Source: an uncultured Clostridia bacterium (GTDB taxonomy: Bacteria > Bacillota > Clostridia > Oscillospirales > Ruminococcaceae). From it: a stretch of 64,000 bases of DNA. A model generated the notes under the pieces. That model was not told the origin of the DNA, did not search any database, and worked only from the letters and a program-made list of their open reading frames with translations. Position 1 is the stretch's first letter, and every line of letters starts with the position of its first letter. The position numbers and the translations under genes were made by a program. This document shows positions 6,772 to 36,668 of the stretch, piece by piece. Location of the stretch: positions 3,924 through 67,923 of the forward strand of contig CANQNY010000001.1 in NCBI GenBank assembly GCA_947625335.1. The letters are read 5' to 3'.

Positions 6772-6805
6772 TTAAAGGTAAAATTGCATGTTTTTTGGAG
6801 GAACT

Positions 6806-10936: not shown

Positions 10937-10942
10937 GATGTT

Positions 10943-10974: not shown

Positions 10975-10990
10975 CTGTAATTTATATAAT

Positions 10991-11902: not shown

Positions 11903-12082
11903 AACAGTTTCCTCCTTAATGCCTACCGCTTTAGTAGGTTCTATAGGATTATTATAACACCGCTTTACAAATTTGTCAAGGGGAATTTTAACATTTTTTA
12001 CCCGAAAAATTAACAAATCTGGCGAAAAAGTGCTAAAATAGAGGTAAGAAATAAGATGTAAGAGGTAAGAAAGAGGTAAGAG

Positions 12083-13201
12083 ATGAAGAAAATTGTTGGA
12101 TTTATAAAATCGCAGCCTGTTTTGACAGCGGCGTTTGTGGCGGCGGTAATAACGCTGTTTATCGTCCCGCCCGACAAGGAATATCTCGGCTACTGCAACA
12201 CCACCGTCCTTATAGAGCTTTTCGCGCTGATGACGGCGGTGGCGGGACTTCGCGGAGCGGGACTTTTCGACCTTGCGACGGGGTTTGTTCTCCGAAAAAC
12301 GGGCAATCTGCGGCGGCTGGGACTCGCATTAACAATAGTGTGCTTTTTCTCGTCGATGCTGGTGACAAACGATGTGGCGTTGCTTACAATGATCCCGCTG
12401 ACGATTATGATTTTCAAATCCGTCCCCGACGAAAAAAGCAGAATTTGGGTAATTGTGCTTGAAACCTGCGCCGCAAACCTCGGCAGTATGACCACGCCCG
12501 TCGGCAATCCGCAGAACCTGTTTTTGTACGATAAATTCGGGCTTTCGGCGGGAACTTTTGTTATTACAATGCTGCCTGCGGCGGGGATAAGTCTGGTTTT
12601 GCTGACGCTGCTGACATTGCTGCTGCCGAAAACGGCGGTGGGCGCGGTGACAACCGAAAATTCCAAGCGAAAAAAGCTCTCGAAACTGCATATCGCGGTT
12701 TTCTCGGTGCTGTTCGCGCTGTGCCTGCTTGCGGTACTCAGAATTTTGCCGCCGATAGTGTGCCTTATAGCCGCGCTGCTTGCGATGATAATTTTTGACC
12801 GCGGACTGTTTAAAAAAGTGGACTACGCGCTGCTCGGAACGTTCGTGTGCTTTTTCGTGTTTGTCGGTAACGTCGCGCGGATAGACGCGGTGAGAGAATT
12901 TTTCTCCTCGGTGCTCAGCGGACGGGAAATTTGGGTGTCGGCTCTTTTATCGCAGGTGATAAGCAACGTCCCCGCCGCGGTTATGCTTGCGGGATTTACC
13001 GAAAACGGCACGGGGCTGCTGCTCGGAGTGAACCTCGGCGGCTTGGGAACGCTTATCGCGTCGCTTGCTAGTCTTATCTCGTTTCAGTTTTACCGCAAAT
13101 CCGATGGCGCAAAAACGCTGCGCTATCTCTTGGTGTTCTCGGTTGTGAATTTCGGACTGCTGGCATTGCTTTTGGCAGCGGAAATGCTGATTTTTACATA
13201 A
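12083..13201 (+). CDS. SLC13/ArsB/NhaD-family permease (citrate transporter-like)
   Basis: Multi-TM; [48 protein letters not shown]. Confidence 0.85.
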
Positions 13202-16200: not shown

Positions 16201-19200
16201 GCTGCTCGGTAACGTCCGACACGATGACCATGTAAATCCTGCTGTTGCTTTCGCCGAAAACCGAACGCGCGGTGGTAAGCTCTATCCACGCGCCTTTTCC
16301 GTCGCTGCGGATGGTGTGATAAGTCATATGAACCGACTCGGCGGCTTTCGCAGTAGTGATTATCCGTTCGAGATCCTCGTTGTCAACGCCGCCTCTTACA
16401 TAATCCAGAACATTCGGTCCTGCGGCGCGCTGTTTTCCGATAATCTGCCAGAAACTGCTGTTGCTGAACAGAATTTTGGGCTCGGCGTTTTCGGGGAGTT
16501 CCATTATGAGAATTCCCTCGCTGAAATTGTTCATAGCAGCCGCAATGCGATCGTTTGCCTGAGCTAACGCAAGCTCGGCTTTCTTTTCGGAATCGATATT
16601 CGTGCCGATACCGATAAGGCGCACTATCTTGCCGTTTTGGTTGAACGAACGGGTTTCGGTAAATCTCCACCAGCTGTACGCGTTAGTTCTCTTATTAAAC
16701 AAGCGGAACTCCTCGGAAATTTTCCCGCGGGTCAGATCGTCGTGGAATATTCTCACTTTTTCTACATCGTCGGGGTGAGTGATATTCTCAAAAATTTTCC
16801 CCTCTTTAACGTAATTTATAATGCCCTCGAAATCGAACCCGTAATCGGACAAATCTCCGACTTGGAAAACGCTGTCGTCGTCAAAATCAATATCAAGAAT
16901 TATGGAATCGGTGATTTTCAGGACCTGCTCTATGCGGCTGCGGGACTGCTCGATTATCCTGTCGCTTTCTATCTTATCCGTGATATTGTTAAACGCAATG
17001 CAGAAAATGGGGTTGTCGTTGCTGCCGCCGAGCCGTCTGTGAATACCGTCAAGGTGCAGCACCCTTCCGTTTTTGTCATAACGCCTTATCGACGCGCGAG
17101 TAGCCTTGTCGGTCCGCATAGCCTCAAGACACGCATTTTTGGAAACCTCCGCGTCCTCGGGCGGCATTTTGCTCCAGATGTTGGAATTCTCCTCGCTGAA
17201 ATCGTCCTGCGAGTAACCCATTATCTGTCTGTAGCCGTCGTTTGCACGGATAAGCTCAAGCTTTCCGTCCACCATTTCATAAATCCCTAAGCCGCCGAAA
17301 ACCGAGCTTATAAACTTCGACACAAGCGCGTTGCTGCCTAAAAGCTCGTTTACGTCCTCACCCATACCGTAGGTTTCGATAGGCTCGGCATAGGCGGTTA
17401 TCTCTTCCTGCGCGACAAGCTGAGTAAAATCATTTTCGGGAACGGGTCGTGAGAAATAAAAACCTTGTATATACGCGCAGCCTATGCTTGCAAGAAATTC
17501 GTACTGCTCGCGGGTTTCAACGCCCTCCGCCAGCAGCGGCACATTAAGCCACTTTGACATACGCGCAACGGAAGTCACAATAGTGCCCACCTTGCCGTTT
17601 TTCTCAAAGCCCTGCATAAACTTCATATCCAATTTCAGCACGTCAATTGGAATATCCTTAAGAGTGTTAAGCGACGAATAGCCGCTGCCGAAATCGTCCA
17701 TAAGCACAGGATAGCATTTCCTGCGAAGTCTGCCGATAGTGTCCAGCAGCTGCGACGGGTTGTCGTTATACGCGCTTTCGGTTATCTCTATGCGGAAATA
17801 TTTCGGGTCTACGCGATAGCGGTCGGTAAGCTCGCTTATCGTTTCAAACAAATTGGGATTGTAAAGGCTCATTCTCGAAACGTTCACCGAAATCGGGAAA
17901 GGCGGCAGACCCTCGTCAAAGCGTTTTTTCTGATAAATGCACACCTGTTCGAGAACGTACAAATCAAGCTCCGCGATAAAGCCGTTTTTCTCGAACACGG
18001 GAATGAATTTCGCGGGGAGAATTTGCCCCTTCGTCGGGTGATTCCAGCGCACGAGCGCCTCCGCGCTGACGAATTTCTTCGCGCGGATGCCGTAAATCGG
18101 CTGATAGCAAACGTAGAATTCCTTATTTTTAAGCGCGCGGCGGGCGTCGTCGCAGATTTCCTGCTCCTCAATCATCTGGCGGCGCATTTTATCATCGTAA
18201 TATGCGATATGCTCTCGGAAACTGCCCGAAATCGAACGGCAGGCAATCGACGCGCGGTCGGTCATATTGTCTACCGACAACTCTCGGTCGGTGACCTTAT
18301 ACACGCCTATGTAAAACTGCACCTCGTGGGAAATTTCGGGTGCGTCGGATACCGCCTTCTGCACCGCGTCAAGAATTGTCTGCGGGTGAATTGAACGCTC
18401 GGAATACGGAATAAGCATTGCAAAATGATCCGAGAAAAGCCGCGCGTAAACGCCGTTTTTCCCGATAACATCGCGCAGAACGCCAGCTATCGTAATTAAC
18501 AGCTTGTCGCCCACGTCGCGCCCTAAAACGTCGTTTAAGACCTTAAATCCGCCGATATTGAGCTTCATTATCGAATACTCCGCAAGCGGGTTTGCATTCA
18601 GAATATCCTGCGCGTTTTTCATAAATGCGGAGCGGTTGTACAGCCCCGTAAGCGGGTCAAAATATGCCGTTATGCGAAGCTCCTGCTCGATTTCGCGCTC
18701 TTTGGTGGTGTTGGTAATAAACGCGTAAAGGCACAGTCGTCCCTCGTCGTTGAACACAAGCTGCCCGCGCATAAGCAGCCAAAGCTCTCCCCCGTCCTTG
18801 GTCTTGCAGGAGAACGAATATTTAAGGTGCTTTCCGGTCGTAAGTGAGCGTGAAATTTTCTGCCGAATAATCTGAACGTCTTCATCGGAGATACCCGCGG
18901 AGGGGTTTTCGCCTATCTCGTTCATACAGCTTTCGTAATCGGGATAGCCGAGCAGCTCCGCAAGCCCCAGACTCGCAAAAAGGGTCTTCATTTTGCCGTA
19001 ATCATCGCGCTCGGCATAGGCAATTCCTCCCGGAGCGTTGTCAAGCAATGCCTCAAGATGACTTTCATTCGTGCGGAGGCGTTTTCCCACTTCGTTTGCA
19101 CGGAGTTCCTGACGCTTTTCCGCGTTAATGTCAAGAAATACGCAGTATATCTCGCGTTTTCCACCGCTTTCACCCATAACTCCCGCGATAAGCCTTACCC

Positions 19201-19897
19201 ACTGGCAAGCGTCGGGGAGAGAAGTGTCGCCTATCCCGAAAATTGCGGAAAAATGCGCCGAATCGCCCGACTCGCGGATAAGATTTTCAAGCCACGCGGG
19301 GCGGTCCTTCTCGGAAAACTGCCCGTTGAACTCGTCGGAGGTCATATTAAACAGCGTGAGCAGCTCATTGTTGAAAAACGTGCAGTAGGCGTTGCTGCCG
19401 TCGGTTTTGATTATTGCGATACCGCCGGGGATATTGTCCATAAGCGCGGACAGATGCCGCTCGCTTTCAAGCTGTTTTTTCATGCTGTCGCGCTCGGAGC
19501 GGATTTTGTCAAGCTCGCACAAACGCAAAACGCTCTTTATGCGGTGTTTTAACGTCCCCGTTTCCTCGCCGCGCGCAACGTAATCCACCGCGCCAAGCTC
19601 CAGAACGCGCATACGCGTTTCGGGGTCGTTGTCGGAAGTCACCGCGATTACCGGAAGTCCGCGCAATGCGGGGTCGGCGTTTATCCGCTCAAGCAGCTCG
19701 CAGCCGTCCATTTCGGGCATAATTATATCAAGCAACACCACGTCTACCGAGCATTCGCCGCCTCGCAGCAGCCGCAAAGCCTCGTCCCCGCTTTCGGCGG
19801 ACACGACGTTATAGCTGTCGCGGAGCATTTCCGTGAGAATTTCTATATTTTGCTTTATGTCATCAACTATAAGAACGGTTACGGTTTTGTTGTCCAT
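13235..19897 (-). CDS. giant c-di-GMP enzyme (about 2220 aa): REC-PAS(n)-degenerate GGDEF-EAL-PAS(n)-GGDEF-GAF
   Basis: REC (IVDD, LLDIIMP); ARLFSDHF degenerate GGDEF; AEALVRW and DDFGSGYSS EAL; RDTD-IVGRYGGDEF second GGDEF; C-terminal FVGFDECR..WTQEQ GAF. Confidence 0.92.
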   Translation of the reverse strand: MDNKTVTVLIVDDIKQNIEILTEMLRDSYNVVSAESGDEALRLLRGGECSVDVVLLDIIMPEMDGCELLERINADPALRGLPVIAVTSDNDPETRMRVLELGAVDYVARGEETGTLKHRIKSVLRLCELDKIRSERDSMKKQLESERHLSALMDNIPGGIAIIKTDGSNAYCTFFNNELLTLFNMTSDEFNGQFSEKDRPAWLENLIRESGDSAHFSAIFGIGDTSLPDACQWVRLIAGVMGESGGKREIYCVFLDINAEKRQELRANEVGKRLRTNESHLEALLDNAPGGIAYAERDDYGKMKTLFASLGLAELLGYPDYESCMNEIGENPSAGISDEDVQIIRQKISRSLTTGKHLKYSFSCKTKDGGELWLLMRGQLVFNDEGRLCLYAFITNTTKEREIEQELRITAYFDPLTGLYNRSAFMKNAQDILNANPLAEYSIMKLNIGGFKVLNDVLGRDVGDKLLITIAGVLRDVIGKNGVYARLFSDHFAMLIPYSERSIHPQTILDAVQKAVSDAPEISHEVQFYIGVYKVTDRELSVDNMTDRASIACRSISGSFREHIAYYDDKMRRQMIEEQEICDDARRALKNKEFYVCYQPIYGIRAKKFVSAEALVRWNHPTKGQILPAKFIPVFEKNGFIAELDLYVLEQVCIYQKKRFDEGLPPFPISVNVSRMSLYNPNLFETISELTDRYRVDPKYFRIEITESAYNDNPSQLLDTIGRLRRKCYPVLMDDFGSGYSSLNTLKDIPIDVLKLDMKFMQGFEKNGKVGTIVTSVARMSKWLNVPLLAEGVETREQYEFLASIGCAYIQGFYFSRPVPENDFTQLVAQEEITAYAEPIETYGMGEDVNELLGSNALVSKFISSVFGGLGIYEMVDGKLELIRANDGYRQIMGYSQDDFSEENSNIWSKMPPEDAEVSKNACLEAMRTDKATRASIRRYDKNGRVLHLDGIHRRLGGSNDNPIFCIAFNNITDKIESDRIIEQSRSRIEQVLKITDSIILDIDFDDDSVFQVGDLSDYGFDFEGIINYVKEGKIFENITHPDDVEKVRIFHDDLTRGKISEEFRLFNKRTNAYSWWRFTETRSFNQNGKIVRLIGIGTNIDSEKKAELALAQANDRIAAAMNNFSEGILIMELPENAEPKILFSNSSFWQIIGKQRAAGPNVLDYVRGGVDNEDLERIITTAKAAESVHMTYHTIRSDGKGAWIELTTARSVFGESNSRIYMVIVSDVTEQQENRMKLNAILGSFDGGVALVAESGGELRIDFANDNFYDVLCVRKEDEQRIKSMLKATVYAKNDTGDLHIRRGDGSTRIVRIHLEKSDSPMRGENRYVIVANDVTIARTAARNRVAERTANAEAGLYDLVYEVNTKNRTLRLIYSRYKHNNPELSKPLPIDCVLQEWAENYIHPADVESARAMYNMPINSPDFTDAYMNIRAANIHGDSDYHTFSVVLVRLRSDFCKLFIRDMARVDSSVASEKVAQTDRLYQTVAEQTNTTVIEFDHTQNRVICSPSINEFWASRLSENEFCNREEFRKGLAVYPEDREIFAEFIERVYSSDEPQSVTLRLKMADENYKWCRMTISLNRSGQKVLKSLCTINIVHSEVIARKKAEHTDELLRRTVRHIPVGVGIFRIDNGKPVPVYLSDNIYRMYGLKPGSIDAPVLPTEELVNNHRLYDRSEGEYALEAMRADGSRFWVNVQYRVLEEQGELMLYAVITDNSAKIEIDRRKTVEEQMYKVLLEETGTIIFDYKPDSDELTYLCRDDRGAIEYHTIEKLLQNPDSLTLLDGVDRANFIFVLKQLCETVGTRELPVKIEVGGYPRRFKAFMKSVCDDSGKIFEIIGKIEDVDDEAARLEKIQAKAMYDALCVDIYNKATTEELIKAELERSTGGALMMIDVDDFKSINDTLGHMFGDEFLKKFASTIKKAFRDTDIVGRYGGDEFFVFMPHATGALAEKKGSIILKNIAEIEVPQLGSIKSSIGVAAVNPDNRSYRQILRQADSALYEAKNRGKNCVVQFDPVTMSETSYRAESAVSQGRSGVVLSSNPNFAASLVMRMFSALYTSLDVTDGINQALALLGRAFDVSRVYIFEDSDDGEYCSNTFEWCGEGVESVMDTLQNLSYKDDLGGNYRENMDDDGIFYCHDINSLSDIHREILERQNVRSVLQCSISDNGKFKGFVGFDECRGSRFWTQEQIDSLVFLSKVIAIFLMKERLKNRSEQLLGSKE

Positions 19898-20107
19898 AAA
19901 AGCAGCCCTCCACAATACATAATAAACTATTTTAATTTTACCATATTGTAAGAAAAATGTCAAGTTTTATATTTGATTTTTGTGCAAAACATCCAAATAT
20001 TTTTGTAACTAAATTTTCTTAAAAATTTCAAAAAATATTGTATAATTAAACTGTAATATGCAGGGATTTTTAACGTCATTATAATTGAAGGGAAAAATAA
20101 AAGGGAA

Positions 20108-20677
20108 GTGATGGGATTGACCGACAGCGAGATTATTTCAATGCTTTGGGAAAGAAACGAAAAAGCACTCGCGGCGTTAAGCGAGAAATACGGGGGATAC
20201 TGCTCGGCTATCGCCGAAAACATTCTCGAAAACCGCGAGGACGCCGAGGAATGTGTGAACGACGCCTATCTCAAAGTTTGGGAGAAGATCCCGCCCGAAA
20301 AGCCGAAAATCCTTTCCGCGTTTATTGCGAAAATCGCGCGGAACGCCGCTATCGACCGATACCGCGCGGCTCACGCTCAAAAACGCGGGTGCGGCGACAT
20401 AGAGCTTATTTTCGACGAGCTTGACGGTGTAATTTCGAGCGTACATAACGCGGAGGATTCCGCCGCGCGCCGAGAGATGATAAACACGATAAACAGGTTT
20501 TTAAGGCGGCTGTCGGCGAAAAAACGACTTGCGTTCGTGTTAAGGTACTGCTGCTGCGAGAGCGTTCAATCTATATCACAGCGACTCGGAATGAGCGAAA
20601 ACAACGTTGCGGTTATGCTTTCGCGAACCAGAAACGCTTTACATGAGCAATTCAAAAAGGAGGGCTATAATTTATGA
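20108..20677 (+). CDS. ECF sigma-70 factor
   Basis: EDAEECVNDAYLKVW, IARNAAID, region 4 ISQRLGMSENNVAVMLSRTR. Confidence 0.92.
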   Translation: MMGLTDSEIISMLWERNEKALAALSEKYGGYCSAIAENILENREDAEECVNDAYLKVWEKIPPEKPKILSAFIAKIARNAAIDRYRAAHAQKRGCGDIELIFDELDGVISSVHNAEDSAARREMINTINRFLRRLSAKKRLAFVLRYCCCESVQSISQRLGMSENNVAVMLSRTRNALHEQFKKEGYNL

Positions 20678-22149
20678 AAAACACACTATTCGACTTACTT
20701 GGAGAAATTGACGACAAATTCTACGAAGAGGCTCTTTGGGAAAACGACCCCGGAGCTAAACTCCGCCCCGAAAAGAAAAAGGCCGTTATAAGAGTGCCGT
20801 TTATCGCGGCGGGAGCGGCTGCGGCGGCGGCTTTGTTTATCGTGCTGGCGTACAAGCTGCCGATTTCCGAAAAACCAAACGTCTCGGGAGCTGCGAATTC
20901 AAACAGCATATCCGAAAGCTTGAGCAGCTCGGACAATTCAAGCACGGGCGCGGAATATATCGGAATTCTCGCAAGCGATATTGAGGAATGCAAGGAAATC
21001 CTTGCCGAAAACGCTTCGGGCGCGGATATTGATATTATTGAAAGCCGAATTATGGATATAAACTTCGACGGCAAGGACGAGATTGTCGTTCTTGCAAACG
21101 GCGGCTACGGGGCGGCGGTTTTCTCCAAAAACAAGGACGGTATTTCGCAGACGGGGCGTTTCGCGCAGGGCGTGAGCATGGAAGGGCTTACGTCGCTTGA
21201 AATGCTGAACAAATTCGACAAAAACGGCGAGAAATACTGGTATTACTGCTATAATTATGATAACGGCATTTTTTACAACACATATATTCTCGCCGCGGTG
21301 AAGTTTGACGGGGAGGAATATTTTACCGAGAGCCTGCTTTCGTTCGGAACGCTGTATTACTCCGACCTTGAAGAACCCGTAAAGCAGAAATTCTACCGCA
21401 AGGGCTGGGACGATACCGACATCGGGATTGCCGGCGAACATAAGAGCGACATTCGGCGCGAGGAATTTAAGGCTTTGTGGGAGCAGTATGACGCTGCGCC
21501 CGATTTCGAGGAACTTGACCAATACGGCGGGGATGTTCTCGGAGAATACGACTTTGGCGACGGAATAACAGGCAAGCTTGTCGGCACGGGCAAAATCGCA
21601 GACAGCAGCCTGCTTTTGGGAGAAACGCAATATTCGGGCTGCAAGGCTGTTATCGACTTTAATGGAACGACCCTCGAAACGACCCTCATGGCGGTGTCCG
21701 TTTCGACAACCGCGCCGTCGCCTTTCGCCTTCAACGACTCCCCGAACTACAATTTGCGGCTTATAAAGCTTGCGGACGGCTATATTCTGGCGTTTACGTA
21801 TGAGGGAGAATCAACGCCCAAGGAAACGACGTTTTACGGGATAGTTGACATTGACGGAAAGCCTCAAATGTTCGATTCAAGGCTTTTCGGGCAGGTTTTA
21901 CACGAAGTCGACGCGCTCTCGCTGTTTGAAGGAAACACGTCTGAAATCGGGACCTCGTTCGGAGTGTTCCTGTCGGACAACTTAAGCATAAACGGGAATA
22001 CTTTTTCCGACAACGAAAACGGCGTTTTCTACACATTTGATTTCGACAACATCAGAATGGGAATTACCGCTCCCGAAAACTACAAATTCGGCTATGACTT
22101 TACAACAACCAAAGACGGAACAGCGTTTGAAGACGAAACACTCGGATAA
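20674..22149 (+). CDS. putative membrane anti-sigma factor with large extracytoplasmic domain
   Basis: ATGA-coupled to the ECF sigma; LGEIDDKFYEEA N-terminus typical of clostridial anti-sigmas; one TM helix and Ser-rich linker. Confidence 0.7.
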   Translation: MKNTLFDLLGEIDDKFYEEALWENDPGAKLRPEKKKAVIRVPFIAAGAAAAAALFIVLAYKLPISEKPNVSGAANSNSISESLSSSDNSSTGAEYIGILASDIEECKEILAENASGADIDIIESRIMDINFDGKDEIVVLANGGYGAAVFSKNKDGISQTGRFAQGVSMEGLTSLEMLNKFDKNGEKYWYYCYNYDNGIFYNTYILAAVKFDGEEYFTESLLSFGTLYYSDLEEPVKQKFYRKGWDDTDIGIAGEHKSDIRREEFKALWEQYDAAPDFEELDQYGGDVLGEYDFGDGITGKLVGTGKIADSSLLLGETQYSGCKAVIDFNGTTLETTLMAVSVSTTAPSPFAFNDSPNYNLRLIKLADGYILAFTYEGESTPKETTFYGIVDIDGKPQMFDSRLFGQVLHEVDALSLFEGNTSEIGTSFGVFLSDNLSINGNTFSDNENGVFYTFDFDNIRMGITAPENYKFGYDFTTTKDGTAFEDETLG

Positions 22150-27706: not shown

Positions 27707-27824
27707 TTTTTGAAACCTCTTTCCGAAAAAATTTCCCCGTTCCCTTAATATCTATCCTTATGATACTACTTTATCGCGGATTTTGCAAGTGTTTTTGCAG
27801 AAAAATTTTTTAATTCCTGCAAAA

Positions 27825-27853
27825 TTTGTGCAGTTTTGTGCAGTTTGCGGAGT
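27825..27853 (+). promoter_or_regulatory. 10-bp direct repeats upstream of the portal operon
   Basis: TTTGTGCAGT TTTGTGCAGT TTGCGGAGT at 27825-27853. Confidence 0.45.
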
Positions 27854-27944
27854 GATAACATAAGCTCAAGGGAAAGGAAACCGACCCTTAATACACGGGC
27901 GGGGCGCACCCGAACGCCTTGCCCGAAGGAAAGGAGGAGTAATT

Positions 27945-29306
27945 TTGGAAATCGGAAATTTGCTTTTCGGAAGGGCAGGGCAGGACAAATTCACCGCGCT
28001 TTCGGCGTTCTATTCGGGCAATCTGGTTCGGTGGAACGACATATACAACGGCGGCGGCGACTGGCGGTACACCCGAAAAGGGGGACTTAGCGGCGGCATG
28101 CGAAAAGTGGCGTCGCTTGGGGCGGCAAAAGCGGTCTGCGCGGAGCTTTCAAGGCTGTGCTTTTCCGAGGGGACAAAGCCCGTGTGCGCGGACAAGGAAA
28201 CCGAGAGCTTTCTTGAACGAACGCTTAGCGAAAACGGCTTTTACGACAGATTCCCCGCGTTTCTCGAAAAGGTGTTTGCGCTGGGCGGCGGAGTTATAAA
28301 GGTCTATCTCGACCGGGGCGTAAAGCTCGATTTTATCACCGCCGACCGCTTTGTGCCTACCAAATGGGACAGCCGCGGCATAAGCGGCGGAGCGTTCGCC
28401 TCGAATGTTACCGTAAACGGGAAAAATTATCTGCTGGCGGAAACCGAGGAGCTTACCGACGAGGGACTGGTGACGACCAACAAACTCTACCGCGAAAGCG
28501 GAGGAGAACTGCCGCTTAACACGGCGTTCCCGAAAATGACCGAAAGGAGCGTGATAAAGGGACTGAAAAAGCCGCTGTTTGTGTATTTCGGGGCGGTCAC
28601 GGGGGCTCTCGCGCAATGCGAGCCTCTGGGAGCGTCGGTGTTCGCGGGTGCGGTGGATACGCTTAAAAGTCTCGACATAGTGTTCGACAGCCTTTCGAGA
28701 GAGTTTATTCTCGGAAAAAAGCGCATAATCGTGCCGAGTTACGCTATCCGCGGAGAATACGGCGCGGACGGCGAGGTAAAACGCTATTTCGACGCAAACG
28801 ACGAGGTTTTTGAGGCGTTTTCGGCGTCGGACGGCGATGATCTGAAAATCATCGACAACACCGACAAGCTGCGCGTGTCGGAACACACCGAGGCTCTGGA
28901 CAAGCTGCTGGACCTTTTGTGCATGCAGACGGGGCTGTCGGAGGGCGCGCTGTCGTTTAAGAGCGGAACTATCAGAACCGCTACGGAAGTCGTCAGCAAA
29001 AACAGCCGAACCTACCGTACCGCGGGCGTTTACCGGAAGATGATTGCAAACCGCTTTGCAAATGTGGCGGAGAACATCTGCCTGCTCGGGAAAATGTCGG
29101 GAGAGCTTTCGGCGGGCGCGTCAAGCAAGGCAACTTTGCGGTTTGCGGACGGCGTGTGCGAGGACGAGAGCGCGAAAACCGAACGCGCTTTGAAACTGTA
29201 CTCGGGAGGGCTTATCTCCAAAACGAGGGCTCTTTCGGAAATTTACGGAGTGTCTCTTGACGAGGCAAAGGCTATGGAAAAGGAGGACTTTACAAATGGA
29301 CAATGA
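27945..29306 (+). CDS. phage portal protein (SPP1 gp6/A118-like)
   Basis: KAVCAELSRLCFSE, FLEKVFALGGGVIKVY.D, DSLSREFILGKKRIIVP, TATEVVS, C-terminal F.D...GLISK..A..EIYG.S.DEA; TTG start after AGGAGG. Confidence 0.88.
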   Translation: MEIGNLLFGRAGQDKFTALSAFYSGNLVRWNDIYNGGGDWRYTRKGGLSGGMRKVASLGAAKAVCAELSRLCFSEGTKPVCADKETESFLERTLSENGFYDRFPAFLEKVFALGGGVIKVYLDRGVKLDFITADRFVPTKWDSRGISGGAFASNVTVNGKNYLLAETEELTDEGLVTTNKLYRESGGELPLNTAFPKMTERSVIKGLKKPLFVYFGAVTGALAQCEPLGASVFAGAVDTLKSLDIVFDSLSREFILGKKRIIVPSYAIRGEYGADGEVKRYFDANDEVFEAFSASDGDDLKIIDNTDKLRVSEHTEALDKLLDLLCMQTGLSEGALSFKSGTIRTATEVVSKNSRTYRTAGVYRKMIANRFANVAENICLLGKMSGELSAGASSKATLRFADGVCEDESAKTERALKLYSGGLISKTRALSEIYGVSLDEAKAMEKEDFTNGQ

Positions 29307-29649
29307 AGAAACCGTTCAGGAAGAAATTATTGACAGCGTGGAAGACGCGGCTGTCGACGAAAAGGCGTATCAAGCCGAGATAGAGGCTCTCAAAAAGGAA
29401 CTTGCGGCGGCGCAGATACGCACCGAGCTGCTTTTGGCGGGAGTTTTGCGCGAAAAACTGGACGAGGGCGCGGCTATAGCCGAGGGGCTTTACGCGGCGG
29501 GAAAAACTCCCATAGAGGCGGCGATTGAAACCGCCGAAAATTATCCGCATCTTAAGGCGGTAAAGCAGGAAATCCCGCAATTCGCGGCAGGCGGCTCGGG
29601 CGCGCTTGACGGGTTTGCGGCGATAAGGAGAATTTTCGCGGGGAGATAA
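29296..29649 (+). CDS. putative capsid scaffolding protein
   Basis: Acidic N-terminus, coiled coil, ENYPHLK motif and short C-terminal helix; lies between portal and capsid; overlaps portal stop. Confidence 0.65.
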   Translation: MDNEETVQEEIIDSVEDAAVDEKAYQAEIEALKKELAAAQIRTELLLAGVLREKLDEGAAIAEGLYAAGKTPIEAAIETAENYPHLKAVKQEIPQFAAGGSGALDGFAAIRRIFAGR

Positions 29650-29951: not shown

Positions 29952-30839
29952 ATGGCAAACACAATCGAATATGCAAAGGTATTTCAGAAGGAACTCGACA
30001 AGCAGGTGACGGAATGCTCCACATCGGGCTGGATGGAGGACAACGCCTCGCAGGTTATCTACAACGGCGGCGGGGAAATTAAACTCCCGAAAATGGTTCT
30101 CAAAGGGCTTGCGGACTATGACCGCGATACGGGCTACACGGGCGGCGCGGTTACTTACTCCTACGAAACTATGACGCTTACGCAGGACAGGGGCAGACGT
30201 TTTCGCATTGACGCGCTGGACGTTGACGAAAGCAATTTCGGACTGGCGGCGGCAAATGTCGCGGCTGAATTTCAGCGCACAAAGGTTATCCCCGAAATTG
30301 ACGCGTACAGATACTCCACCCTTGCGGCGGCAGCGGAAATCAAAACCGAATATACTCCCGAAAAGGCAACCATTCTTTCCACGCTGATTGAGGAAATCGG
30401 CAAGGTACGCGAGGCGGCGGGCGACGAATGCGAGCTGGTCGTTGCTATGGCGCGTTCGGTTTACGACAAGCTGATGCTTTCGGAGGAGGTTACTCACTCC
30501 ATTGACTGCTCGAACTTCGTTCAGGGCGATCTTGAGCTTTCCGTCAAGAGCATTGCAGGCGCGGCAATTATCCCCGTACCGTCGGCTAGAATGAAGACCG
30601 GATACGATTTCAGCGCGACAGATGGTTTCTCCGCAAAATCCGACGCAAAGCAGATAAACTGGATAATCTGCCCAAAGAGCGCGCCTATCGCGGTATCTAA
30701 GACCGACAACGTGAAGATAATCACTCCCGAACAAAACCAGTTTGCGGACGCATGGGACATCGACTACCGCAAGTATCATGACCTGTTTATCCCCGACAAC
30801 AAAAAAGCGGTCATTGCGGTCTGCACCGAGACGCTCTAA
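29952..30839 (+). CDS. major capsid protein (HK97 fold, Firmicutes phage type)
   Basis: MANTIEYAKVFQKELDK, GG.EIKLPKM..GLADYDR..GY..G.VT..YET.TLTQDRGR.F.ID..DVDE, EFQRTKVIPEIDAYRYS, YRKYHDLFI. Confidence 0.88.
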   Translation: MANTIEYAKVFQKELDKQVTECSTSGWMEDNASQVIYNGGGEIKLPKMVLKGLADYDRDTGYTGGAVTYSYETMTLTQDRGRRFRIDALDVDESNFGLAAANVAAEFQRTKVIPEIDAYRYSTLAAAAEIKTEYTPEKATILSTLIEEIGKVREAAGDECELVVAMARSVYDKLMLSEEVTHSIDCSNFVQGDLELSVKSIAGAAIIPVPSARMKTGYDFSATDGFSAKSDAKQINWIICPKSAPIAVSKTDNVKIITPEQNQFADAWDIDYRKYHDLFIPDNKKAVIAVCTETL

Positions 30840-30908: not shown

Positions 30909-31358
30909 ATGATTATTACAAAGGAAGAATTTCACGAAATGGGGTTTGAAGTTGAGGCAAAATACGAGAGTCTGCTTGAAAAATGCATTCTGCGCGCGGA
31001 ATACGTTTTAAACGGGCTGACAAACGGCGCGGCAAGCACAGCGGCTCTTTCGGGGACGGCTGCCGCGGATTTTGTAAAGCAGGCGGCGGCTTTTCAGACG
31101 AACGATATTTTAAAAGAGGAAATTGCTCTTGCAAAATCACAAGCGGAATCCTCGTCGAGCGAAACCTCGAAAAAAAGCGACGAGCGCGTTTCTATAGGGG
31201 ATTTCTCCTATTCTTCCGGAACATCGTCCTCGGAGTCGTCTAAAAGTTCTTCTAGTTCGAGCGAGGAGGAAATATCGCGCCTTGACACGGGAAGGACGAT
31301 TATAAGGCTTTTGCGCGCGGCGGGCTGTCTTTATACGGGCGCGGAGGTGAAAGAATGA
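30909..31358 (+). CDS. putative head-tail adaptor (gp15/gp8-like)
   Basis: Follows the capsid gene; helical N-terminus, ERVSIGDFSYS beta-hairpin, C-terminal LRAAGCLYTG. Confidence 0.7.
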   Translation: MIITKEEFHEMGFEVEAKYESLLEKCILRAEYVLNGLTNGAASTAALSGTAAADFVKQAAAFQTNDILKEEIALAKSQAESSSSETSKKSDERVSIGDFSYSSGTSSSESSKSSSSSSEEEISRLDTGRTIIRLLRAAGCLYTGAEVKE

Positions 31359-31693
31359 TAAACGTAAAACCCATTCCCGACGAGCTTTTGGGGGACGATA
31401 TTGTACTTATCACGCCGACGGGTTACGGCTCTTCAAGGGAAACGATTTACAACGTCCGCGTGGAAAAGCAAGCCGCGATAACCGACTATACCTCGTCCTC
31501 ACAGCGCGAAAACACAACTATTACCGTATGGTACGACTGTGAGAATTCTTACCCTGAGGCGGAGTTTCCCGTCGGGGCTAAGGTTGAATACGGCGGGGAG
31601 ATTTTTGAGATCGTGGAATCAAAGGTTTACAAAACCGACGTTCCTCATCACAAAAAATTCAAGGCAAGAAAAATTGCGGAGGTGAGAGAATGA
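31355..31693 (+). CDS. putative head-closure / minor capsid protein
   Basis: IP..LL.D.I, TIYNVRVE, TVWYD, GAKVEYGGE.FEI beta-rich pattern; ATGA-coupled. Confidence 0.65.
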   Translation: MINVKPIPDELLGDDIVLITPTGYGSSRETIYNVRVEKQAAITDYTSSSQRENTTITVWYDCENSYPEAEFPVGAKVEYGGEIFEIVESKVYKTDVPHHKKFKARKIAEVRE

Positions 31694-31851
31694 ACAAGAA
31701 AGAAACGCCCGAAAAGCTGAAAAATCTCGGCGCGCTTTCGTCGGACGACATATGCAGGATTTCAAAAGAACTTGCAAACGAGGTTCGGAAAGTCAACCGA
31801 AGAATTTGCTCGAAAATAAAAAAGAAGTCTGAACGGAGGGATAAATCATGA
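31690..31851 (+). CDS. 53-aa basic helical ORF at the position of the missing tail module
   Basis: MNKKETPEKLKNLGALSSDDICRISKELANEVRKVNRRICSKIKKKSERRDKS; GGAGGTG RBS; ATGA overlaps with both neighbours. Not in the supplied ORF track. Confidence 0.7.
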   Translation: MNKKETPEKLKNLGALSSDDICRISKELANEVRKVNRRICSKIKKKSERRDKS

Positions 31852-32189
31852 CTATTACGATTGACGAATCGGAATACGACGTCACGGAACTTAACGCCAA
31901 AAGGGAAATTCGTCAGACCAACATTCAATACAACACGCAGGGCGATATGCTTATCGATATGGTAAACAGAAAATACCTGCTGGAAGTGACGTTCGGGCTG
32001 CTTAGCGAGGAAAAAATGGCGGCGCTGCGAAAGTCCTCCGATAAAATCTTCGTTCCCGTGACGTTCAACTCCCCAGAGGGAGAAATTACCGAGGACTTTT
32101 TTATTTCGGACGAGCCTGCGCCGATTGTTACCGTGATAAACGGAGAAAGATTATACGGCGGCGTAAAGCTTACTTTGAAACAGAGGTGA
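31848..32189 (+). CDS. putative distal tail (Dit-like) protein
   Basis: 113 aa; NTQGDMLIDMVNRKYLLEVTFGLLS...VTF.SP.G; position directly before the hub gene. Confidence 0.6.
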   Translation: MTITIDESEYDVTELNAKREIRQTNIQYNTQGDMLIDMVNRKYLLEVTFGLLSEEKMAALRKSSDKIFVPVTFNSPEGEITEDFFISDEPAPIVTVINGERLYGGVKLTLKQR

Positions 32190-32193: not shown

Positions 32194-33711
32194 ATGGTCG
32201 AAGTGTCCGACAATTTCAAAAAACTCGCGGTACAAAGCGGGCGTTATGTTTACTGTAAAATTATCGCGGGAAACACAACGTTTTTTGACGACAAAATTCT
32301 CGAATTCGATTTCGACGATATTTGCCACCCGGAATGGTATACGGTAGGCACGGCTTGCCCGAACAAGTTTACTTTTTCGGTGCTCTACAACGGGGAACTT
32401 TTGGTGGGCGACACGGTAAAGCCGTATATCAGTTTCGACAACTCGGAATGGTGTCCGCTGGGGGTTTTCTATGTAGCAAGAAGATATGTCCGCGGGAAAA
32501 AAGCGTCTATTACCTGCTATGACAAAATGTACTCTCTGGACGATGAATACATACCCTCGATACAAGCTCCCACAACGTATGACGCAATTCTGAGGGACGT
32601 GTGCTCTGCGGCGGGGCTTGCCTGCGAGGACTATGGGGCGGATTACATCGTAAACGAAATCCCCAAAGGACACACGCTGAGGGATATGATAGGTTATATT
32701 GCGGCGATAAACCACAGTTGTGCGAAACTTGACCGCAGCGAAAAACTGACGCTGAAAAAACAAACGAGTATTATTTATTACTGGCTGGAACTCGAAAACT
32801 GCATGGACTACAGCAGAAATATGGATTACTCGACGATAACCTGCCTGTCGTGCGACACGGGAAACGAAATTCTGGTATCGGGGGACGGAGCGCTGACCTC
32901 CACCATCGAGTTCTACAACCCGTTTATGACGCAGCAGGGACTGGACAATATGCTGGCGTCGCTGAGGCTTATTCAGTTCTATGGTGCGAAAATCACTATG
33001 CAGGGACTGCCGTTTCTGGAGGCGGGCGAACGCATATTTTTTATGGACGACCCCGCCTATTTGCACCCGATTTGGTTAAGCGAGATAAACTACCACTACG
33101 ACGGCGCGCTTACCGCGAAAGTTTATTCCCGAAACCGGAGTTATACCGACGCTGCCGTTCACAAAGAGGACCTGGACGCCGCGCTTGACGAAATTCGGGC
33201 GCAGCTTGGCAACGTCTGCATAAAGCAGACAAACGACAACGAGATTTCTCTCGGAAGTTCGCCCGTGACGGCGGCAAGCTTTGAATTCCTCGCGAAAGCC
33301 AGAAACACCTTCGCGCAGATAGACCTTAATTTTACCGTCAGCTCCGCGCCGGGTGTGACGCTTAACATCGACCTTTCCGTAAACGGAGAAAAAATTTCCC
33401 GAACGGCTTTGCATATCGCGGCAGAACAAAGCGAAATGCTGCACTATTACTACCTTGCGGACAACCTTCCGAAAGGCGCGAATAAAATCGAGGTTCGGAT
33501 AAGTATGTCGCAGGGAACGGCGATTATCCCCAAAAATCAGCTTATCGCAACGCTTGTCGGAAAGGGTTTGGGCGGAGGGAACAGCGGCAATGTAAACGAT
33601 AGGCTTACCGTTACCGATGAATTTCCGAAATATGACTATGTGCGAACGGATCTGGGGCTCGCGGGATTTGACGCTTACCCCGGCTTTGACGGCGCACAGG
33701 AAACGGAGTGA
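32194..33711 (+). CDS. putative baseplate hub / Tal-like tail protein
   Basis: VGTAC..K, W.PLG.FYV, ITCYDKM..LD, TLRDMIGYIA, QGLPFLEAGE; beta-sandwich-like C-terminus. Confidence 0.65.
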   Translation: MVEVSDNFKKLAVQSGRYVYCKIIAGNTTFFDDKILEFDFDDICHPEWYTVGTACPNKFTFSVLYNGELLVGDTVKPYISFDNSEWCPLGVFYVARRYVRGKKASITCYDKMYSLDDEYIPSIQAPTTYDAILRDVCSAAGLACEDYGADYIVNEIPKGHTLRDMIGYIAAINHSCAKLDRSEKLTLKKQTSIIYYWLELENCMDYSRNMDYSTITCLSCDTGNEILVSGDGALTSTIEFYNPFMTQQGLDNMLASLRLIQFYGAKITMQGLPFLEAGERIFFMDDPAYLHPIWLSEINYHYDGALTAKVYSRNRSYTDAAVHKEDLDAALDEIRAQLGNVCIKQTNDNEISLGSSPVTAASFEFLAKARNTFAQIDLNFTVSSAPGVTLNIDLSVNGEKISRTALHIAAEQSEMLHYYYLADNLPKGANKIEVRISMSQGTAIIPKNQLIATLVGKGLGGGNSGNVNDRLTVTDEFPKYDYVRTDLGLAGFDAYPGFDGAQETE

Positions 33712-33715: not shown

Positions 33716-35035
33716 ATGAAAGGAAAAGCAACGTTTATCCTGACGGATAAGTATACCAAAAAGCCCGTAAAACAAATTACGGAACACAACCTTGTGACAA
33801 AGGCGTTGGAAAAGGTATTATTCCCCCCGCCTATCACAAGAATAACAATGGGAACTTCAAACTTCGCGGACAACTACTTCCCTATCTGCAATAAACTTAT
33901 AGGCGGGATAGTCCTTTTGGGGAACACGCTACCCGAAAACGCGGAGGATTTTATGATCCCGCCCGACATCATACCCGTAGGCGCGGCAGGAAAAGAATAC
34001 ACCGGCACAAACCCCTGCCGAGGGACATTAAATATCTCCATGAGCGGTCCTATCGAAAACGGCTACATGCTGGTGTGGGACTTCGCTCCCGAAAAAGCAA
34101 ACGGCGTGATAAAATGCGTGGGACTTACCAACTTCTGCTATGGAAACGCCGCTTTTTTAAAGACAAACGAGCAAAACTGCGGCATATGTACCCCGCCAAT
34201 AAATATGGGACAGAATTTGGCGTCTATCCCGACGGTTATGTCCGTTTTGGGACGTTTTTACGGCAAGGCGGAAGGCACGCGGCTGTATTCCTACACATAT
34301 ACCTCAAATATACTCACGCTTTACGAAAGCGAAATAAGCGACCCGCGCAACATTAAAGTCGGCGACGCCATAAGCGACTTCAAGACGGCAAAAGTAGTTT
34401 CCGAAAAGGAGCTTGAACTTCCCGTGCAGCTTTCGTCCTCGTCTATGCACTTCTACTGCCGCGAGGACGGCTGTCTTTATCTGCTGGCGTATAACTATAC
34501 GTTCAATAAAGTGACCATCTATCATTTTACGCTCATGAAGATCGATCCCATGACGGGAAGGCTGCTTGATGAAAAGAATTTTGAGATTTCCGGCGAAAAA
34601 AGCTTTTCGGGATTTTCGTTCGCGATAAAACAGGGGAAAATCTATCTTTCGGGTTCGGGGAACTACGCAACGCTGTTTACTATCAATTTATCAAACTGCT
34701 CGATACTCGCCGAAAGAAGTCTTACCCACGCGGGAACATTTAATTTGTTCGAGTGGAACGGCTATATCATGGGAACGGAAATGCTTTCGGGGTATTATTA
34801 CAAGTTTTTCGCGGAATATGAAAATTACCCCATGCTGTGCGGAGGACCCGGAGCAGAAGTGACATGCGATCTTGTCCCGATACCGTATTCCTTAAGATAC
34901 AGCTATGACTCCACGAGAACGAATTTTTATCTCATGATGAGAACGGACTATCTTGCGACAATAAACAACCTTTCCGCGCCGCTTGAAAAGACCGACCGAC
35001 ACGCGCTGCAGATACGCTACGAGCTGACCTACTAA
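33716..35035 (+). CDS. putative tail fibre / receptor-binding baseplate protein
   Basis: N-terminal EHNLVT..., RG.LN...SG..ENGY..VWDF...ANG.I..V.LT seen in Firmicutes phage tail proteins; aromatic-rich, propeller-like middle. Confidence 0.6.
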   Translation: MKGKATFILTDKYTKKPVKQITEHNLVTKALEKVLFPPPITRITMGTSNFADNYFPICNKLIGGIVLLGNTLPENAEDFMIPPDIIPVGAAGKEYTGTNPCRGTLNISMSGPIENGYMLVWDFAPEKANGVIKCVGLTNFCYGNAAFLKTNEQNCGICTPPINMGQNLASIPTVMSVLGRFYGKAEGTRLYSYTYTSNILTLYESEISDPRNIKVGDAISDFKTAKVVSEKELELPVQLSSSSMHFYCREDGCLYLLAYNYTFNKVTIYHFTLMKIDPMTGRLLDEKNFEISGEKSFSGFSFAIKQGKIYLSGSGNYATLFTINLSNCSILAERSLTHAGTFNLFEWNGYIMGTEMLSGYYYKFFAEYENYPMLCGGPGAEVTCDLVPIPYSLRYSYDSTRTNFYLMMRTDYLATINNLSAPLEKTDRHALQIRYELTY

Positions 35036-35164: not shown

Positions 35165-35324
35165 TAAAGCACCTCCGCTTTTAAATACAGCCCCGCAAGC
35201 CGAAAAAATGCGCTTGCGGGGCTTTGCTGTAATATTTTTGTCATACAAGGGTGTTTTATTCGCCGAATACCGTTGACAAATCCTGCCTGCGGTTGTATAA
35301 TAAGAATAGTGATTATTGTAAGAG

Positions 35325-36668
35325 GTGCGTATAATGTTTGTATTTCTTCGCATTGTAAACTGGGTTGTTCTGATTTTCGGACTGAATATGCCGATAATAT
35401 TAAAAAACGCTCCGCTGCCGCTTAAACTCGCGCTTGGGGCGGTGCTGCTGGCATATTTTCTGATATTCAACATACTGCCGACATTTAAAAAATACCCCGT
35501 TTTACGGCTGAAAGTGCTGGGGGACGGCGCGGAACTTATCCTTACGTTTTGGGTGACTTGCGCGTGTGCCGCGCAGTTTGTCGGGATAGGCATTTATGAC
35601 CTCGTTATGGGAGAGAAAAACTACACGGTCTACATCGTCTACGCCGTAATCCTCATTCTCGGAGAGGCGGCGATATTCTGGAACGGCATTATCCGCGTGT
35701 ATCTTACTTCCGTTCAGCTCGGAATTCAATATCGCGTGCTTGGGGTACTGTTCGGAATGGTGCCGATTGCAAATCTTATTATGCTGATGATAATTTACAT
35801 TACCGTAAAACGCGAGACCGATTTCGAGACCGAAAAATACAAGCTGAACGAAAGCCGCAAGGACGAAAAGATCTGCGCGACGAAATACCCGATTTTGCTG
35901 GTACACGGGGTGTTTTTCCGCGACAGCAGGCTTTTAAACTACTGGGGGAGAATTCCCGCGGAACTTGAAAAAAACGGCGCGGTGATATACTACGGCGAAC
36001 AGCAAAGCGCGCTTTCGGTAGTGGAAAGTTCAAAAGAGCTTGCGAAAAAAATAGAGGAAATAGTGACCACCACGGGCTGCGGGAAAGTGAATATAATCGC
36101 GCACTCGAAGGGCGGGCTGGATTCGCGCTATGCTATCTCGAAGCTTGGCTGCGACAAGTACGTCGCGACGCTTACGACGATAAACACGCCGCACAGGGGC
36201 TGTATTTTCGCGGAATATTTGCTGAAGACCGCGCCCGAGAATTTCAAAAAAATGATAGAGCAGACCTACAACAAGGCGTTTTATATGCTGGGGGATAGTT
36301 CTCCGAATTTTATGGAGGCGGTAAGCTGTCTTACAAACAGCTACTGCGAGGAATTTAACAAGGAAGTCCCGAATTCTCCCGACGTTATGTATCAATCCTA
36401 CGGGAGCAAGGCTTTAAACTCGCGCAGCGGAAAATTCCCGCTGAATGTGTCCTACCCCGTAGTCAAAAAATACGACGGCGACAACGACGGACTGGTGGCG
36501 CTGACCTCCGCGGAATGGGGCGAAAAATTTACGCCGATTTACCCCAAAGGCAAACGCGGCATAACGCACGCGGATATGATTGACCTCAACCGCGAGGATA
36601 TAAAGGGGTTTGACGTGCGGGAATTTTATGTACAAATGGCGGCGGATCTTAAAAAGAGAGGTTTTTAA
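35325..36668 (+). CDS. membrane-anchored lipase/esterase (alpha/beta hydrolase)
   Basis: N-terminal TM bundle; LVHGVFF, AHSKGG nucleophile elbow, DNDGLV, H..MID; TTGACA...TATAAT promoter upstream. Confidence 0.88.
   Translation: MRIMFVFLRIVNWVVLIFGLNMPIILKNAPLPLKLALGAVLLAYFLIFNILPTFKKYPVLRLKVLGDGAELILTFWVTCACAAQFVGIGIYDLVMGEKNYTVYIVYAVILILGEAAIFWNGIIRVYLTSVQLGIQYRVLGVLFGMVPIANLIMLMIIYITVKRETDFETEKYKLNESRKDEKICATKYPILLVHGVFFRDSRLLNYWGRIPAELEKNGAVIYYGEQQSALSVVESSKELAKKIEEIVTTTGCGKVNIIAHSKGGLDSRYAISKLGCDKYVATLTTINTPHRGCIFAEYLLKTAPENFKKMIEQTYNKAFYMLGDSSPNFMEAVSCLTNSYCEEFNKEVPNSPDVMYQSYGSKALNSRSGKFPLNVSYPVVKKYDGDNDGLVALTSAEWGEKFTPIYPKGKRGITHADMIDLNREDIKGFDVREFYVQMAADLKKRGF

Follow-up and report, generated by a model that had tools for sequence, protein, structure and literature searches.

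The small gene and the genes on either side of it

The 64,000-nucleotide (nt) stretch analysed here (hereafter the window), from contig CANQNY010000001.1 of an uncultured Clostridia bacterium, carries on its forward strand a 7-kb cluster of phage-derived genes that runs from a portal gene to a gene named p472. Gene annotations place the portal, scaffold, capsid, adaptor, closure, small protein, minimal distal tail protein (Dit), Tal hub and distal protein genes in this order, and the subject of this work is the small protein together with the module that contains it. It is encoded by a 53-codon open reading frame (ORF) at 31690-31851 (+; ATG at 31690, stop codon at 31849-31851), which is the only gene between those of the gp16-like head closure protein and the 113-amino acid (aa) minimal Dit, and which is a divergent occupant of a conserved small-gene slot. 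The Shine-Dalgarno sequence GGAGGTG at 31676-31682 (+), as read from the DNA, leaves a 7-nt spacer between GGAGG and ATG. The start codon overlaps the TGA of the upstream 112-aa gene (31355-31693) as ATGA, and the TGA of the ORF overlaps the ATG of the Dit gene (31848-32189). The translation, MNKKETPEKLKNLGALSSDDICRISKELANEVRKVNRRICSKIKKKSERRDKS, has an isoelectric point (pI) of 10.1 and a net charge of +9, of which +8 is found in the last 30 residues. AlphaFold2 modelling of the single sequence gives a disordered N-terminus and one helix at residues 18-52, with a predicted local distance difference test (pLDDT) value of ~97. The basic helical ORF with a perfect Shine-Dalgarno sequence and ATGA overlaps at both ends, as described in the initial annotation, can be read directly from the DNA. 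A search of 5.8 billion proteins with the 53-aa product returned one match, of 98% identity, and no significant Pfam or PHROG match was found for it. Equivalents of the ORF on related contigs were called by gene callers. Segment 31690-31851 is a genuine small protein-coding gene.

Gene identities in the operon were assigned from PHROG and Pfam scans unless another basis is stated. The upstream neighbour (31355-31693, +) encodes a 112-aa head closure or stopper protein similar to SPP1 gp16, which matches phrog_793 (E 1.5e-4) and, above the Pfam cutoff, PF10665 Minor_capsid_1 (E 3.5e-7). The downstream neighbour (31848-32189, +) encodes the 113-aa minimal Dit, a ring protein with the tube fold, which matches phrog_1194, a family of unknown function (E 8e-11). 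The AlphaFold2 model of Dit consists of a beta-sandwich plus a helix (pLDDT 83.6), and all of the top 50 Foldseek matches in PDB are tube, Dit, terminator or Hcp-fold tail proteins, with E-values of only 1e-3 to 0.1 and template modelling scores of ~0.5; they include proteins of the Mu and 80alpha baseplates, diffocin, the neck of the gene transfer agent RcGTA, the Dit of lactococcal phage p2, and Hcp. Aligned by hhalign, the Dit family profile matches phiCP51_0019 (probability 94%, E 1e-7), a 114-aa protein encoded directly after the tape measure gene of the Clostridium siphophage vB_CpeS-CP51 (CP51). Dit is also 41% identical to the product of 9956-10315 in the phage-like contig L094, and in both CP51 and L094 the homolog is encoded between the tape measure gene, which it follows immediately, and Tal. 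The hub and Dit alignments were also used as profiles to search PDB sequences, from which no meaningful match emerged. The designation of the two flanking genes as closure-like and Dit-like in the initial annotation is justified by the phrog_793 and PF10665 matches of the one and by the tube fold and phiCP51_0019 homology of the other.

The content of the slot in phages was established by comparison with two relatives. CP51 has six genes between the closure-region genes and Dit, including that of a 1070-aa tape measure protein. The nearest phage-like relative found is the IMG/VR contig L094 (IMGVR_UViG_3300006045_000798, 2743-12826), whose capsid, portal and large terminase subunit (TerL) are 65%, 50% and 56% identical, respectively, to their counterparts in the element studied here. 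Its gene order is phrog_541-793-[556-913-820 major tail-706-1535 tape measure]-1194-6616, where the bracketed block stands for tail completion proteins, the major tail protein, a chaperone and a short tape measure (258 aa), and CP51 is organised alike. The window keeps the flanking families (541, 793, 1194 and 6616), and the 53-aa ORF alone replaces the bracketed block. Because L094 and CP51 carry them between the same flanking families, the missing tail genes can be defined, and the view that this slot is the usual place of tail completion, tube, chaperone and tape measure genes agrees with what is seen in both. The likeness to siphophage modules (SPP1 gp15/gp16/gp17/gp17.1/gp18/gp19.1/gp21, CP51 and L094) lies in the same PHROG families on both sides of the slot; the siphophages carry phrog_556-913-820-706-1535, whereas in the chromosomal module a 38-64-aa gene stands there instead, and the siphophages are mobile, whereas the module is fixed in the chromosome.

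The window contains no tube or tape measure gene, either between closure and Dit or elsewhere. A 2242-aa ORF at 13235-19963 (-) was considered as a tape measure gene and rejected, being that of a REC-PAS-EAL-GGDEF cyclic di-GMP signalling protein. MT835941 (L092) was considered as a tube-less phage and rejected, as ~6.5 kb lie between its capsid and hub genes. In L094, the Tal gene is cut short at 173 aa and adjoins a 607-aa serine recombinase gene.

Conservation, loss and divergence of the slot gene

The closure-Dit junction was readable in 72 non-redundant loci. A family of small genes of 38-64 aa occupies 49 of them, with a variable acidic or polar N-terminus and a conserved C-terminus of the form EE[SG]YR[LI]AKL[LI]RxGNRELxRQLNxKK, and the divergent variant is found in two more, the window and its sister genome L007. 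Conservation in orthologous operons, which the initial annotation had proposed as a check, thus amounts to a small basic ORF at this position in 51 of the 72 loci. Three loci have a spacer of 75-250 nt without a gene, and in 18 loci the closure-Dit gap of -4 to 26 nt leaves no room for one. The spacers of L009 (9750-10001) and L010 (2088-2318), of 230-250 nt, contain no recognisable small gene in any frame and may represent the fully decayed gene.

The ratio of nonsynonymous to synonymous substitution rates (dN/dS), pooled over 16 close pairs, is 0.18 for the whole slot gene, 0.09 for its C-terminal 30 residues and 0.28 for its N-terminal part, compared with 0.17 for closure and 0.095 for Dit. 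Where present, the slot gene is under purifying selection. The family has no significant Pfam or PHROG match, the weak PHROG matches including an Arc-like repressor for L007 (E 0.2). A 220-nt contig from a wastewater metatranscriptome spans the small gene of locus L028 without mismatches. The possibility that the family is a remnant of a tape measure protein was rejected, as its hidden Markov model (HMM) does not match the tail-module proteins of CP51 or L094, tape measure C-termini included. A likeness noted by eye between LYRQWGTK at the C-terminus of the L094 tape measure and LARQLNTK failed a shuffle test, in which 163 of 2000 shuffles reached at least the same score.

In a neighbour-joining tree of the closure, Dit and hub proteins, the family gene is ancestral and its absences fall in at least four separate places, or seven on the literal topology; the sister superclade lacks the slot gene altogether. 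Because the gene was lost repeatedly without decay of the module, it is dispensable and accessory rather than an essential ruler or plug. This, together with the lack of the motif and the fast evolution of the copy of the window, argues against an essential version of the miniature tape measure or plug suggested in the initial annotation. A relation to tape measures finds no support either, as no sequence similarity to the tape measure proteins of CP51 and L094 was detected; among tape measure traits, only the helical character and the gene position fit. Loss of the slot gene overlaps only partially with loss of p472 or of the hub C-terminus, and a consistent link between them was rejected.

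The ORF of the window agrees with the family in position, strand, frame and size, as well as in a pI of 10-11 and a charge concentrated in the C-terminal 30 residues, and on the tree it is sister to the family-bearing loci L001 and L005. A DNA alignment with these two loci gives the same start region and a same-frame codon correspondence (for example, GAG-GAG-AGC-TAT-AAG vs GAC-GAC-ATA-TGC-AGG), with several R, K and L positions shared, and a conserved 3' junction is common to all three (TGAACGGAGGG / CTGAACGGAGGG). The family HMM scores 4.6 bits for the ORF of the window and 2.0 bits for the 48-aa ORF of L007; shuffled sequences reach 8-15 bits (8.2 for the window ORF). A six-frame search of the window with the HMM found no match in any frame. 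By this search the idea that the ORF is a frameshifted family gene was rejected, only a 1-nt shift near the 3' end being supported. In the window and L007, a 1-nt difference leaves the ancestral TGA (31828-31830) out of frame, and the ORF runs on for seven codons, through the Shine-Dalgarno sequence of Dit (GGAGGG, 31834-31839, +, located inside this 3' extension by DNA alignment with L001, L005 and L007), to the ATGA overlap. In most species the 3' junction of the slot gene is a gap of 10-15 nt and ATGA coupling is not conserved. Because the 1-nt frame change created the overlap, the 3' coupling in the window is a derived, lineage-specific accident, and the proposal that the replacement had preserved coupling is not sustained.

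Comparison of the window with L007 provides a measure of constraint on the divergent variant. The two small ORFs are 54% identical in amino acid sequence, compared with 86-91% for the flanking genes; they differ at 35% of nucleotides (11-13% in the flanks) and have a dN of 0.33 (0.045-0.064 in the flanks). The differences are distributed over codon positions 1, 2 and 3 as 16/9/26 (chi-square p ~0.01), the one indel is 15 nt long and in frame, and the frame is open in both sequences, an outcome that only 11% of neutral simulations retain. The C-terminal 23 residues are 74% identical. The copy of the window is therefore still coding, under much weaker or altered constraint.

The module in the chromosome and the split terminase

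The other genes of the module fit a siphovirus-like head and tail tip. The first, with a TTG start, encodes a 453-aa portal protein (27945-29306, +; phrog_533, E 6e-100; PF05133 SPP1_portal, E 3.5e-15) that is 58-76% identical in 79 species. It is followed by a 130-aa scaffold-like protein (29257-29649, +), which has a weak match to the head scaffolding family phrog_2303 (E 1.6e-4) and keeps its position in all loci, and by the 295-aa major capsid protein (29952-30839, +; phrog_422, E 8.5e-104), which is ~46% identical to capsid proteins of siphophages and myophages and 70-82% identical across the clade. A 149-aa head-tail adaptor of the gp15 type (30909-31358, +; phrog_541, E 1e-7) precedes the closure gene. 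Downstream of Dit lies the 505-aa Tal-like tail hub (32194-33711, +; tail protein phrog_6616, E 8e-28). Its first ~320 residues match the N-termini of the giant CP51_0022 tail protein and of PblB-like Tal proteins (tblastn 1e-27), and 6 of 20 members of the hub family have weak matches to YQBQ-like proteins (the XkdQ hub). The last gene encodes a distal protein named p472 (33716-35035, +; phrog_19291, E 1e-29), of 439 aa from its true start, ATG at 33716, as read from the sequence. It is possibly a fibre or receptor binder.

Several lineages lack both the p472 gene and the last ~45 aa of the hub. In a comparison that included the related loci L003, L013-L020, L036 and L042, these hub residues (33560-33711 in the window) occur only in genomes that also carry the 439-aa gene, which suggests, because of this co-occurrence, that the hub C-terminus and the 439-aa protein interact. 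Some lineages retain a still shorter hub of ~345 aa.

The intergenic region between rpiR and the portal gene (27707-27944) is a candidate control region of the module. Alignment across species reveals conserved, repeated TTGCA(A/G)/TGCAG motifs in it (…TTTTGCAAGTGTTTTTGCAGAAA…CTGCAAAATTTGTGCAGTTTTGTGCAG…), which persist even in locus L085, where the module is deleted; the highly conserved regulator of the RpiR family, whose gene is transcribed divergently, may use them as operators. No sigma-70 consensus promoter was found in this region. A perfect sigma-70 consensus promoter (TTGACA-17 nt-TATAAT, 12/12) is present at 35273-35301, just upstream of the genes for an alpha/beta-hydrolase, phoH, ybeY and dgkA. 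Because these genes are preceded by a perfect promoter of their own, the phage-derived module appears to be a transcription unit separate from the hydrolase-phoH operon.

The chromosomal surroundings of the module are those of housekeeping genes. The upstream flank, on the minus strand, consists of rpiR, a gene for an HI0933-like flavoprotein, cmk, a plsC-like gene and ispH-rpsA, and the downstream flank consists of the alpha/beta-hydrolase gene, phoH, ybeY and dgkA. The hydrolase gene (35325-36668) encodes a 447-aa protein with a C-terminal lipase/esterase-like alpha/beta-hydrolase domain (weak DUF676 and PGAP1-like matches); it follows the module in many species, is 64-96% conserved, and may be a partner of either the module or the phoH operon. 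About 6 kb upstream of the module, at 20108-22149, the gene of a 189-aa sigma factor of the extracytoplasmic function type overlaps the start of a gene for a 491-aa protein that matches no family and may be an anti-sigma factor. The 64-kb window is free of integrase, replication, lysis and terminase genes, and the ±10-kb flanks of related module loci contain no integrase, replication or lysis genes. A search of a phage collection found no DNA similar to the module. The interpretation of the locus as a prophage was rejected on these grounds, namely the lack of a phage-collection match and of terminase, integrase and lysis genes in the window.

The 113-aa Dit is represented by 42 database clusters, all of 113-114 aa and all from metagenome-assembled genomes (MAGs) of Oscillospiraceae, on whose contigs the nine genes of the module recur at an unchanged chromosomal position. 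When each GTDB species was scanned through one genome, 79 distinct module loci were obtained, all in Oscillospiraceae or Clostridia MAGs. The order portal-scaffold-capsid-adaptor-closure-slot-Dit-hub is collinear in every locus of sufficient length, and the chromosomal neighbours (cmk/ispH-rpsA and phoH-ybeY-dgkA) are the same in many of the 79 species. The capsid protein is as conserved relative to the window (70-82%) as cmk or ispH-rpsA. For the 21 species in which both sets are available, pairwise distances of portal plus capsid correlate with those of ispH-rpsA, HI0933 and cmk (r=0.964, Mantel 0/2000, slope 1.13), and the mean distances of the module and housekeeping sets are nearly equal (0.227 and 0.240). 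Because these distances co-vary with near-equal means, we conclude that the module is vertically inherited with the chromosome under host-like constraint. The argument of the initial annotation that the replacement of the tail block suggests selection stands to the extent that the tube-less arrangement is fixed in ~79 species and co-diverges with housekeeping genes; what we find is an old, vertically inherited module and not a recent clean replacement within a phage. In L085 (9650-10400), the whole module has been lost and a ~100-nt relic encoding Dit residues 17-49 is left next to rpiR.

Terminase genes are found at the module in only one part of its range. In L083 and L081, which belong to the most divergent clade, a 408-aa TerL (Terminase_6N plus Terminase_6C) is encoded directly after the module, preceded by a conserved 85-aa ORF, and in L086, L087 and L088 the same pair stands alone among housekeeping genes (L083, 13200-14693; L081, ~4800-6279; L086, 9747-11227; L087, 9757-11230; L088, 4213-5693). 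This TerL family is large and highly conserved, the best 120 clusters being 73-98% identical and annotated as the PBSX-family terminase of Oscillospiraceae. The 85-aa ORF (…AEFFEKHNRTFIKFGEMFAKKLTDEELI…) always precedes and overlaps TerL, and its product is probably a minimal small terminase subunit (TerS). In L088, the pair is located directly upstream of spo0A. One MAG holds both loci, with the Dit MDE7399270.1 and the TerL MDE7400305.1 coming from the same assembly and run, on contigs of similar coverage and with nearby accessions. By this gene arrangement the element is multi-locus with the terminase split off, a layout typical of gene transfer agents (GTAs).

Interpretation and relation to gene transfer agents

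On balance, and by a modest lean, we favour the interpretation that the 53-aa ORF is a real gene encoding a small accessory protein in a domesticated, siphovirus-derived, tube-less and multi-locus GTA-like module of Oscillospiraceae. An ancestor of a large clade of this family would have lost the genes for tail completion, tube, chaperone and tape measure, and the closure ring would dock, directly or via the small protein, on a single Dit ring with its hub, giving a stub-tailed particle. Because the loss of tube and tape measure is ancient, clade-wide and kept by selection, the gp16-like closure ring is presumably joined to the single Dit ring and the Tal hub. The module has passed vertically with the chromosome, the TerS-like 85-aa gene and TerL being adjacent to it in one clade and elsewhere in others. 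The small protein, with its disordered N-terminus and basic C-terminal helix, could have an accessory role in the structure or assembly of the closure-Dit channel, helpful and not essential, for example by lining or plugging the lumen, holding the DNA end or assisting assembly; a factor of the neck/Dit lumen or of the DNA end is our leading guess. The GTA-like character is supported by a structural gene cluster that lacks replication, integration and excision genes, by vertical inheritance with dN/dS values of 0.1-0.18, and by a host-encoded terminase at a separate locus, with one MAG containing both.

Four other explanations were weighed. The ORF of the window could be a decaying relic that drifts nearly neutrally and is kept mainly as the carrier of the Dit Shine-Dalgarno sequence and as a spacer between the flanking genes. 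The missing family motif (4.6 bits, with shuffles up to 8.2), the excess of dN and of nucleotide divergence over the flanks (0.33 vs 0.045-0.064 and 35% vs 11-13%), the frameshifted 3' end, the at least four losses in related lineages and the sister superclade without the gene all speak for it. Neutral drift, however, seldom leaves the frame open at 35% divergence, as it is in the two sequences compared; the indel of 15 nt preserves the frame, the differences among codon positions are coding-like, the C-terminal 23 residues are largely retained, and the basic helical character, pI and charge distribution match those of the family, so that decay seems to us rather unlikely, if a serious contender. 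Another explanation, which we hold to be improbable, is that the small protein acts as a miniature tape measure or plug, a trimeric helix that occupies the channel through the Dit ring and hub, where it sets or seals a one-ring tail, and that is the first to leave at DNA delivery. Tape measure proteins span ~1.5 Å per residue and a tube or Dit ring is ~40 Å high, so the predicted helix of 30-35 residues (~45-50 Å) would match roughly one ring; the gene occupies the tape measure position directly upstream of Dit, and purifying selection on its conserved C-terminal half is strong (ω 0.09). A true ruler or plug should nevertheless be essential, yet 21 of the 72 loci keep an intact module without the gene; a Gly-Asn pair breaks the helix in the middle of the family consensus, and the comparisons with the CP51 and L094 tape measures, including their C-termini and the resemblance noted by eye, were negative.

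The module might alternatively contribute to a long-tailed particle whose tube, tape measure and chaperone genes lie at a different locus, in which case nothing could be learned about a tube-less junction from the small ORF. That the element is multi-locus is demonstrated by TerS and TerL, which are encoded elsewhere, and the coverage around each locus was ±10 kb; but no tube or tape measure genes appear at the 79 module loci, at three stand-alone terminase loci or in the 64-kb window, and in 18 species the closure and Dit genes abut or overlap, with -4 to 26 nt between them. In known multi-locus GTAs, moreover, the genes encoded away from the main cluster are accessory ones and not those of tube or tape measure, as RcGTA illustrates, and we consider a remote tail locus quite improbable. 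Least credible, and in our estimate very improbable, is a non-structural role of the small protein as a nucleic-acid-binding regulator or chaperone, acting for instance on translation or transcription of the distal genes or on the timing of assembly. The protein is very basic, it is dispensable in many lineages, its consensus AKLLRxGNRELxRQLNxKK resembles, by reading, the first two helices of helix-turn-helix motifs, and the non-significant PHROG matches include the Arc-like repressor; it is, however, too short for a complete helix-turn-helix domain, belongs to no significant Pfam or PHROG family, and its presence is uncorrelated with any particular downstream gene content.

Several points weigh against the favoured interpretation of an accessory protein in a tube-less, GTA-like module. 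The ORF of the window has no significant similarity to the family, and its orthology rests on position, frame and residual codon similarity. A dN ~6 times that of its neighbours, together with repeated loss in neighbouring clades, fits relaxed constraint or ongoing decay. The transcript evidence is one low-depth wastewater contig, for which carry-over of DNA is possible, and it is weak. The small protein is assigned to the closure-Dit junction by the position of its gene, and the GTA-like reading rests on gene content and evolutionary pattern, the module being known from genes alone. Finally, a third locus could carry the tube and tape measure genes, just as the terminase has a locus of its own, given a coverage of ±10 kb around the module and three terminase loci.

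The element can be compared with several known systems. Like the FpGTA of Faecalibacterium prausnitzii, it is chromosomal, near-ubiquitous, multi-locus and phage-derived, occurs in gut Oscillospirales, lacks replication and integration genes and a long tail, and has a small TerS-like protein in which no DNA-binding domain is obvious. In FpGTA, the capsid is of the N4-gp56 family and is accompanied by a Prp-type protease and a podovirus tail nozzle, with TerS and TerL at the head of operon I (PMC12946183), whereas the module studied here has an SPP1-type portal, a phrog_422 capsid, a gp15/gp16-like neck, a siphovirus Dit and Tal, and a mostly unlinked terminase; FpGTA particles have been shown, whereas the present module is known from its genes. 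Homology to FpGTA was rejected on the published annotations (proteomics table), the two being set apart by description. RcGTA of Alphaproteobacteria and PBSX of Bacillus subtilis are likewise domesticated tailed-phage clusters, vertically inherited, with extra loci elsewhere and host-like purifying selection. RcGTA, however, keeps tube and tape measure and PBSX keeps sheath and tube, and both have the terminase in the main cluster; the Dit of the module matches RcGTA neck and tube proteins at the fold level. Capsid-forming phage-inducible chromosomal islands (cf-PICIs; cited as Alqurainy et al. 2023) resemble the module in having their own portal, capsid, adaptor and closure genes and no tail tube or tape measure; they are mobile islands with integrase, replication and terminase genes that borrow the complete tail of a helper phage. 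The present 7-kb cluster, in contrast, lacks integrase, replication and terminase genes, encodes Dit and Tal itself, and shows synteny and vertical inheritance.

GTA-like packaging has been reported to be prominent in Ruminococcaceae and Oscillospiraceae, with FpGTA of Faecalibacterium identified as the first podovirus-like GTA (Borodovich et al., Nat Commun 2026, PMC12946183). A 2026 preprint inferred GTA production in an Oscillospiraceae genus, in which prophage-based criteria found no cluster (bioRxiv 10.64898/2026.07.08.737213), and the responsible gene clusters have so far been named for Faecalibacterium only (PMC12946183; 10.64898/2026.07.08.737213). A literature search found no description of the present module. 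We tentatively propose, as a possibility to which we give somewhat less than even weight, that the 7-kb module and the unlinked 85-aa+TerL pair are the hitherto missing gene set behind the GTA-like or 'generalised' packaging of chromosomal DNA in gut Oscillospiraceae. It would then be an independent Gram-positive GTA distinct from FpGTA and PBSX, and the first in which a siphovirus head and neck lead straight into a Dit-Tal baseplate, tube and tape measure being absent; the small basic protein would be a lineage-variable accessory of the junction.

The larger result of this work is the context, a widespread, vertically inherited, siphovirus-derived, tube-less and split-locus GTA-like element, to which the 53-aa ORF contributes a minor, variable part. 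The small gene is of narrower interest as a conserved but repeatedly lost junction accessory, whose pattern of loss provides natural knock-outs. A split, integrase-free module with an unlinked terminase would escape prophage-based criteria, and the module presents a concrete, testable candidate for the missing GTA gene set in ~80 species. If this is true, a siphovirus neck set on a minimal Dit ring and Tal hub would represent an unusual route to a short tail, and a natural experiment on the need for tape measure and tube.

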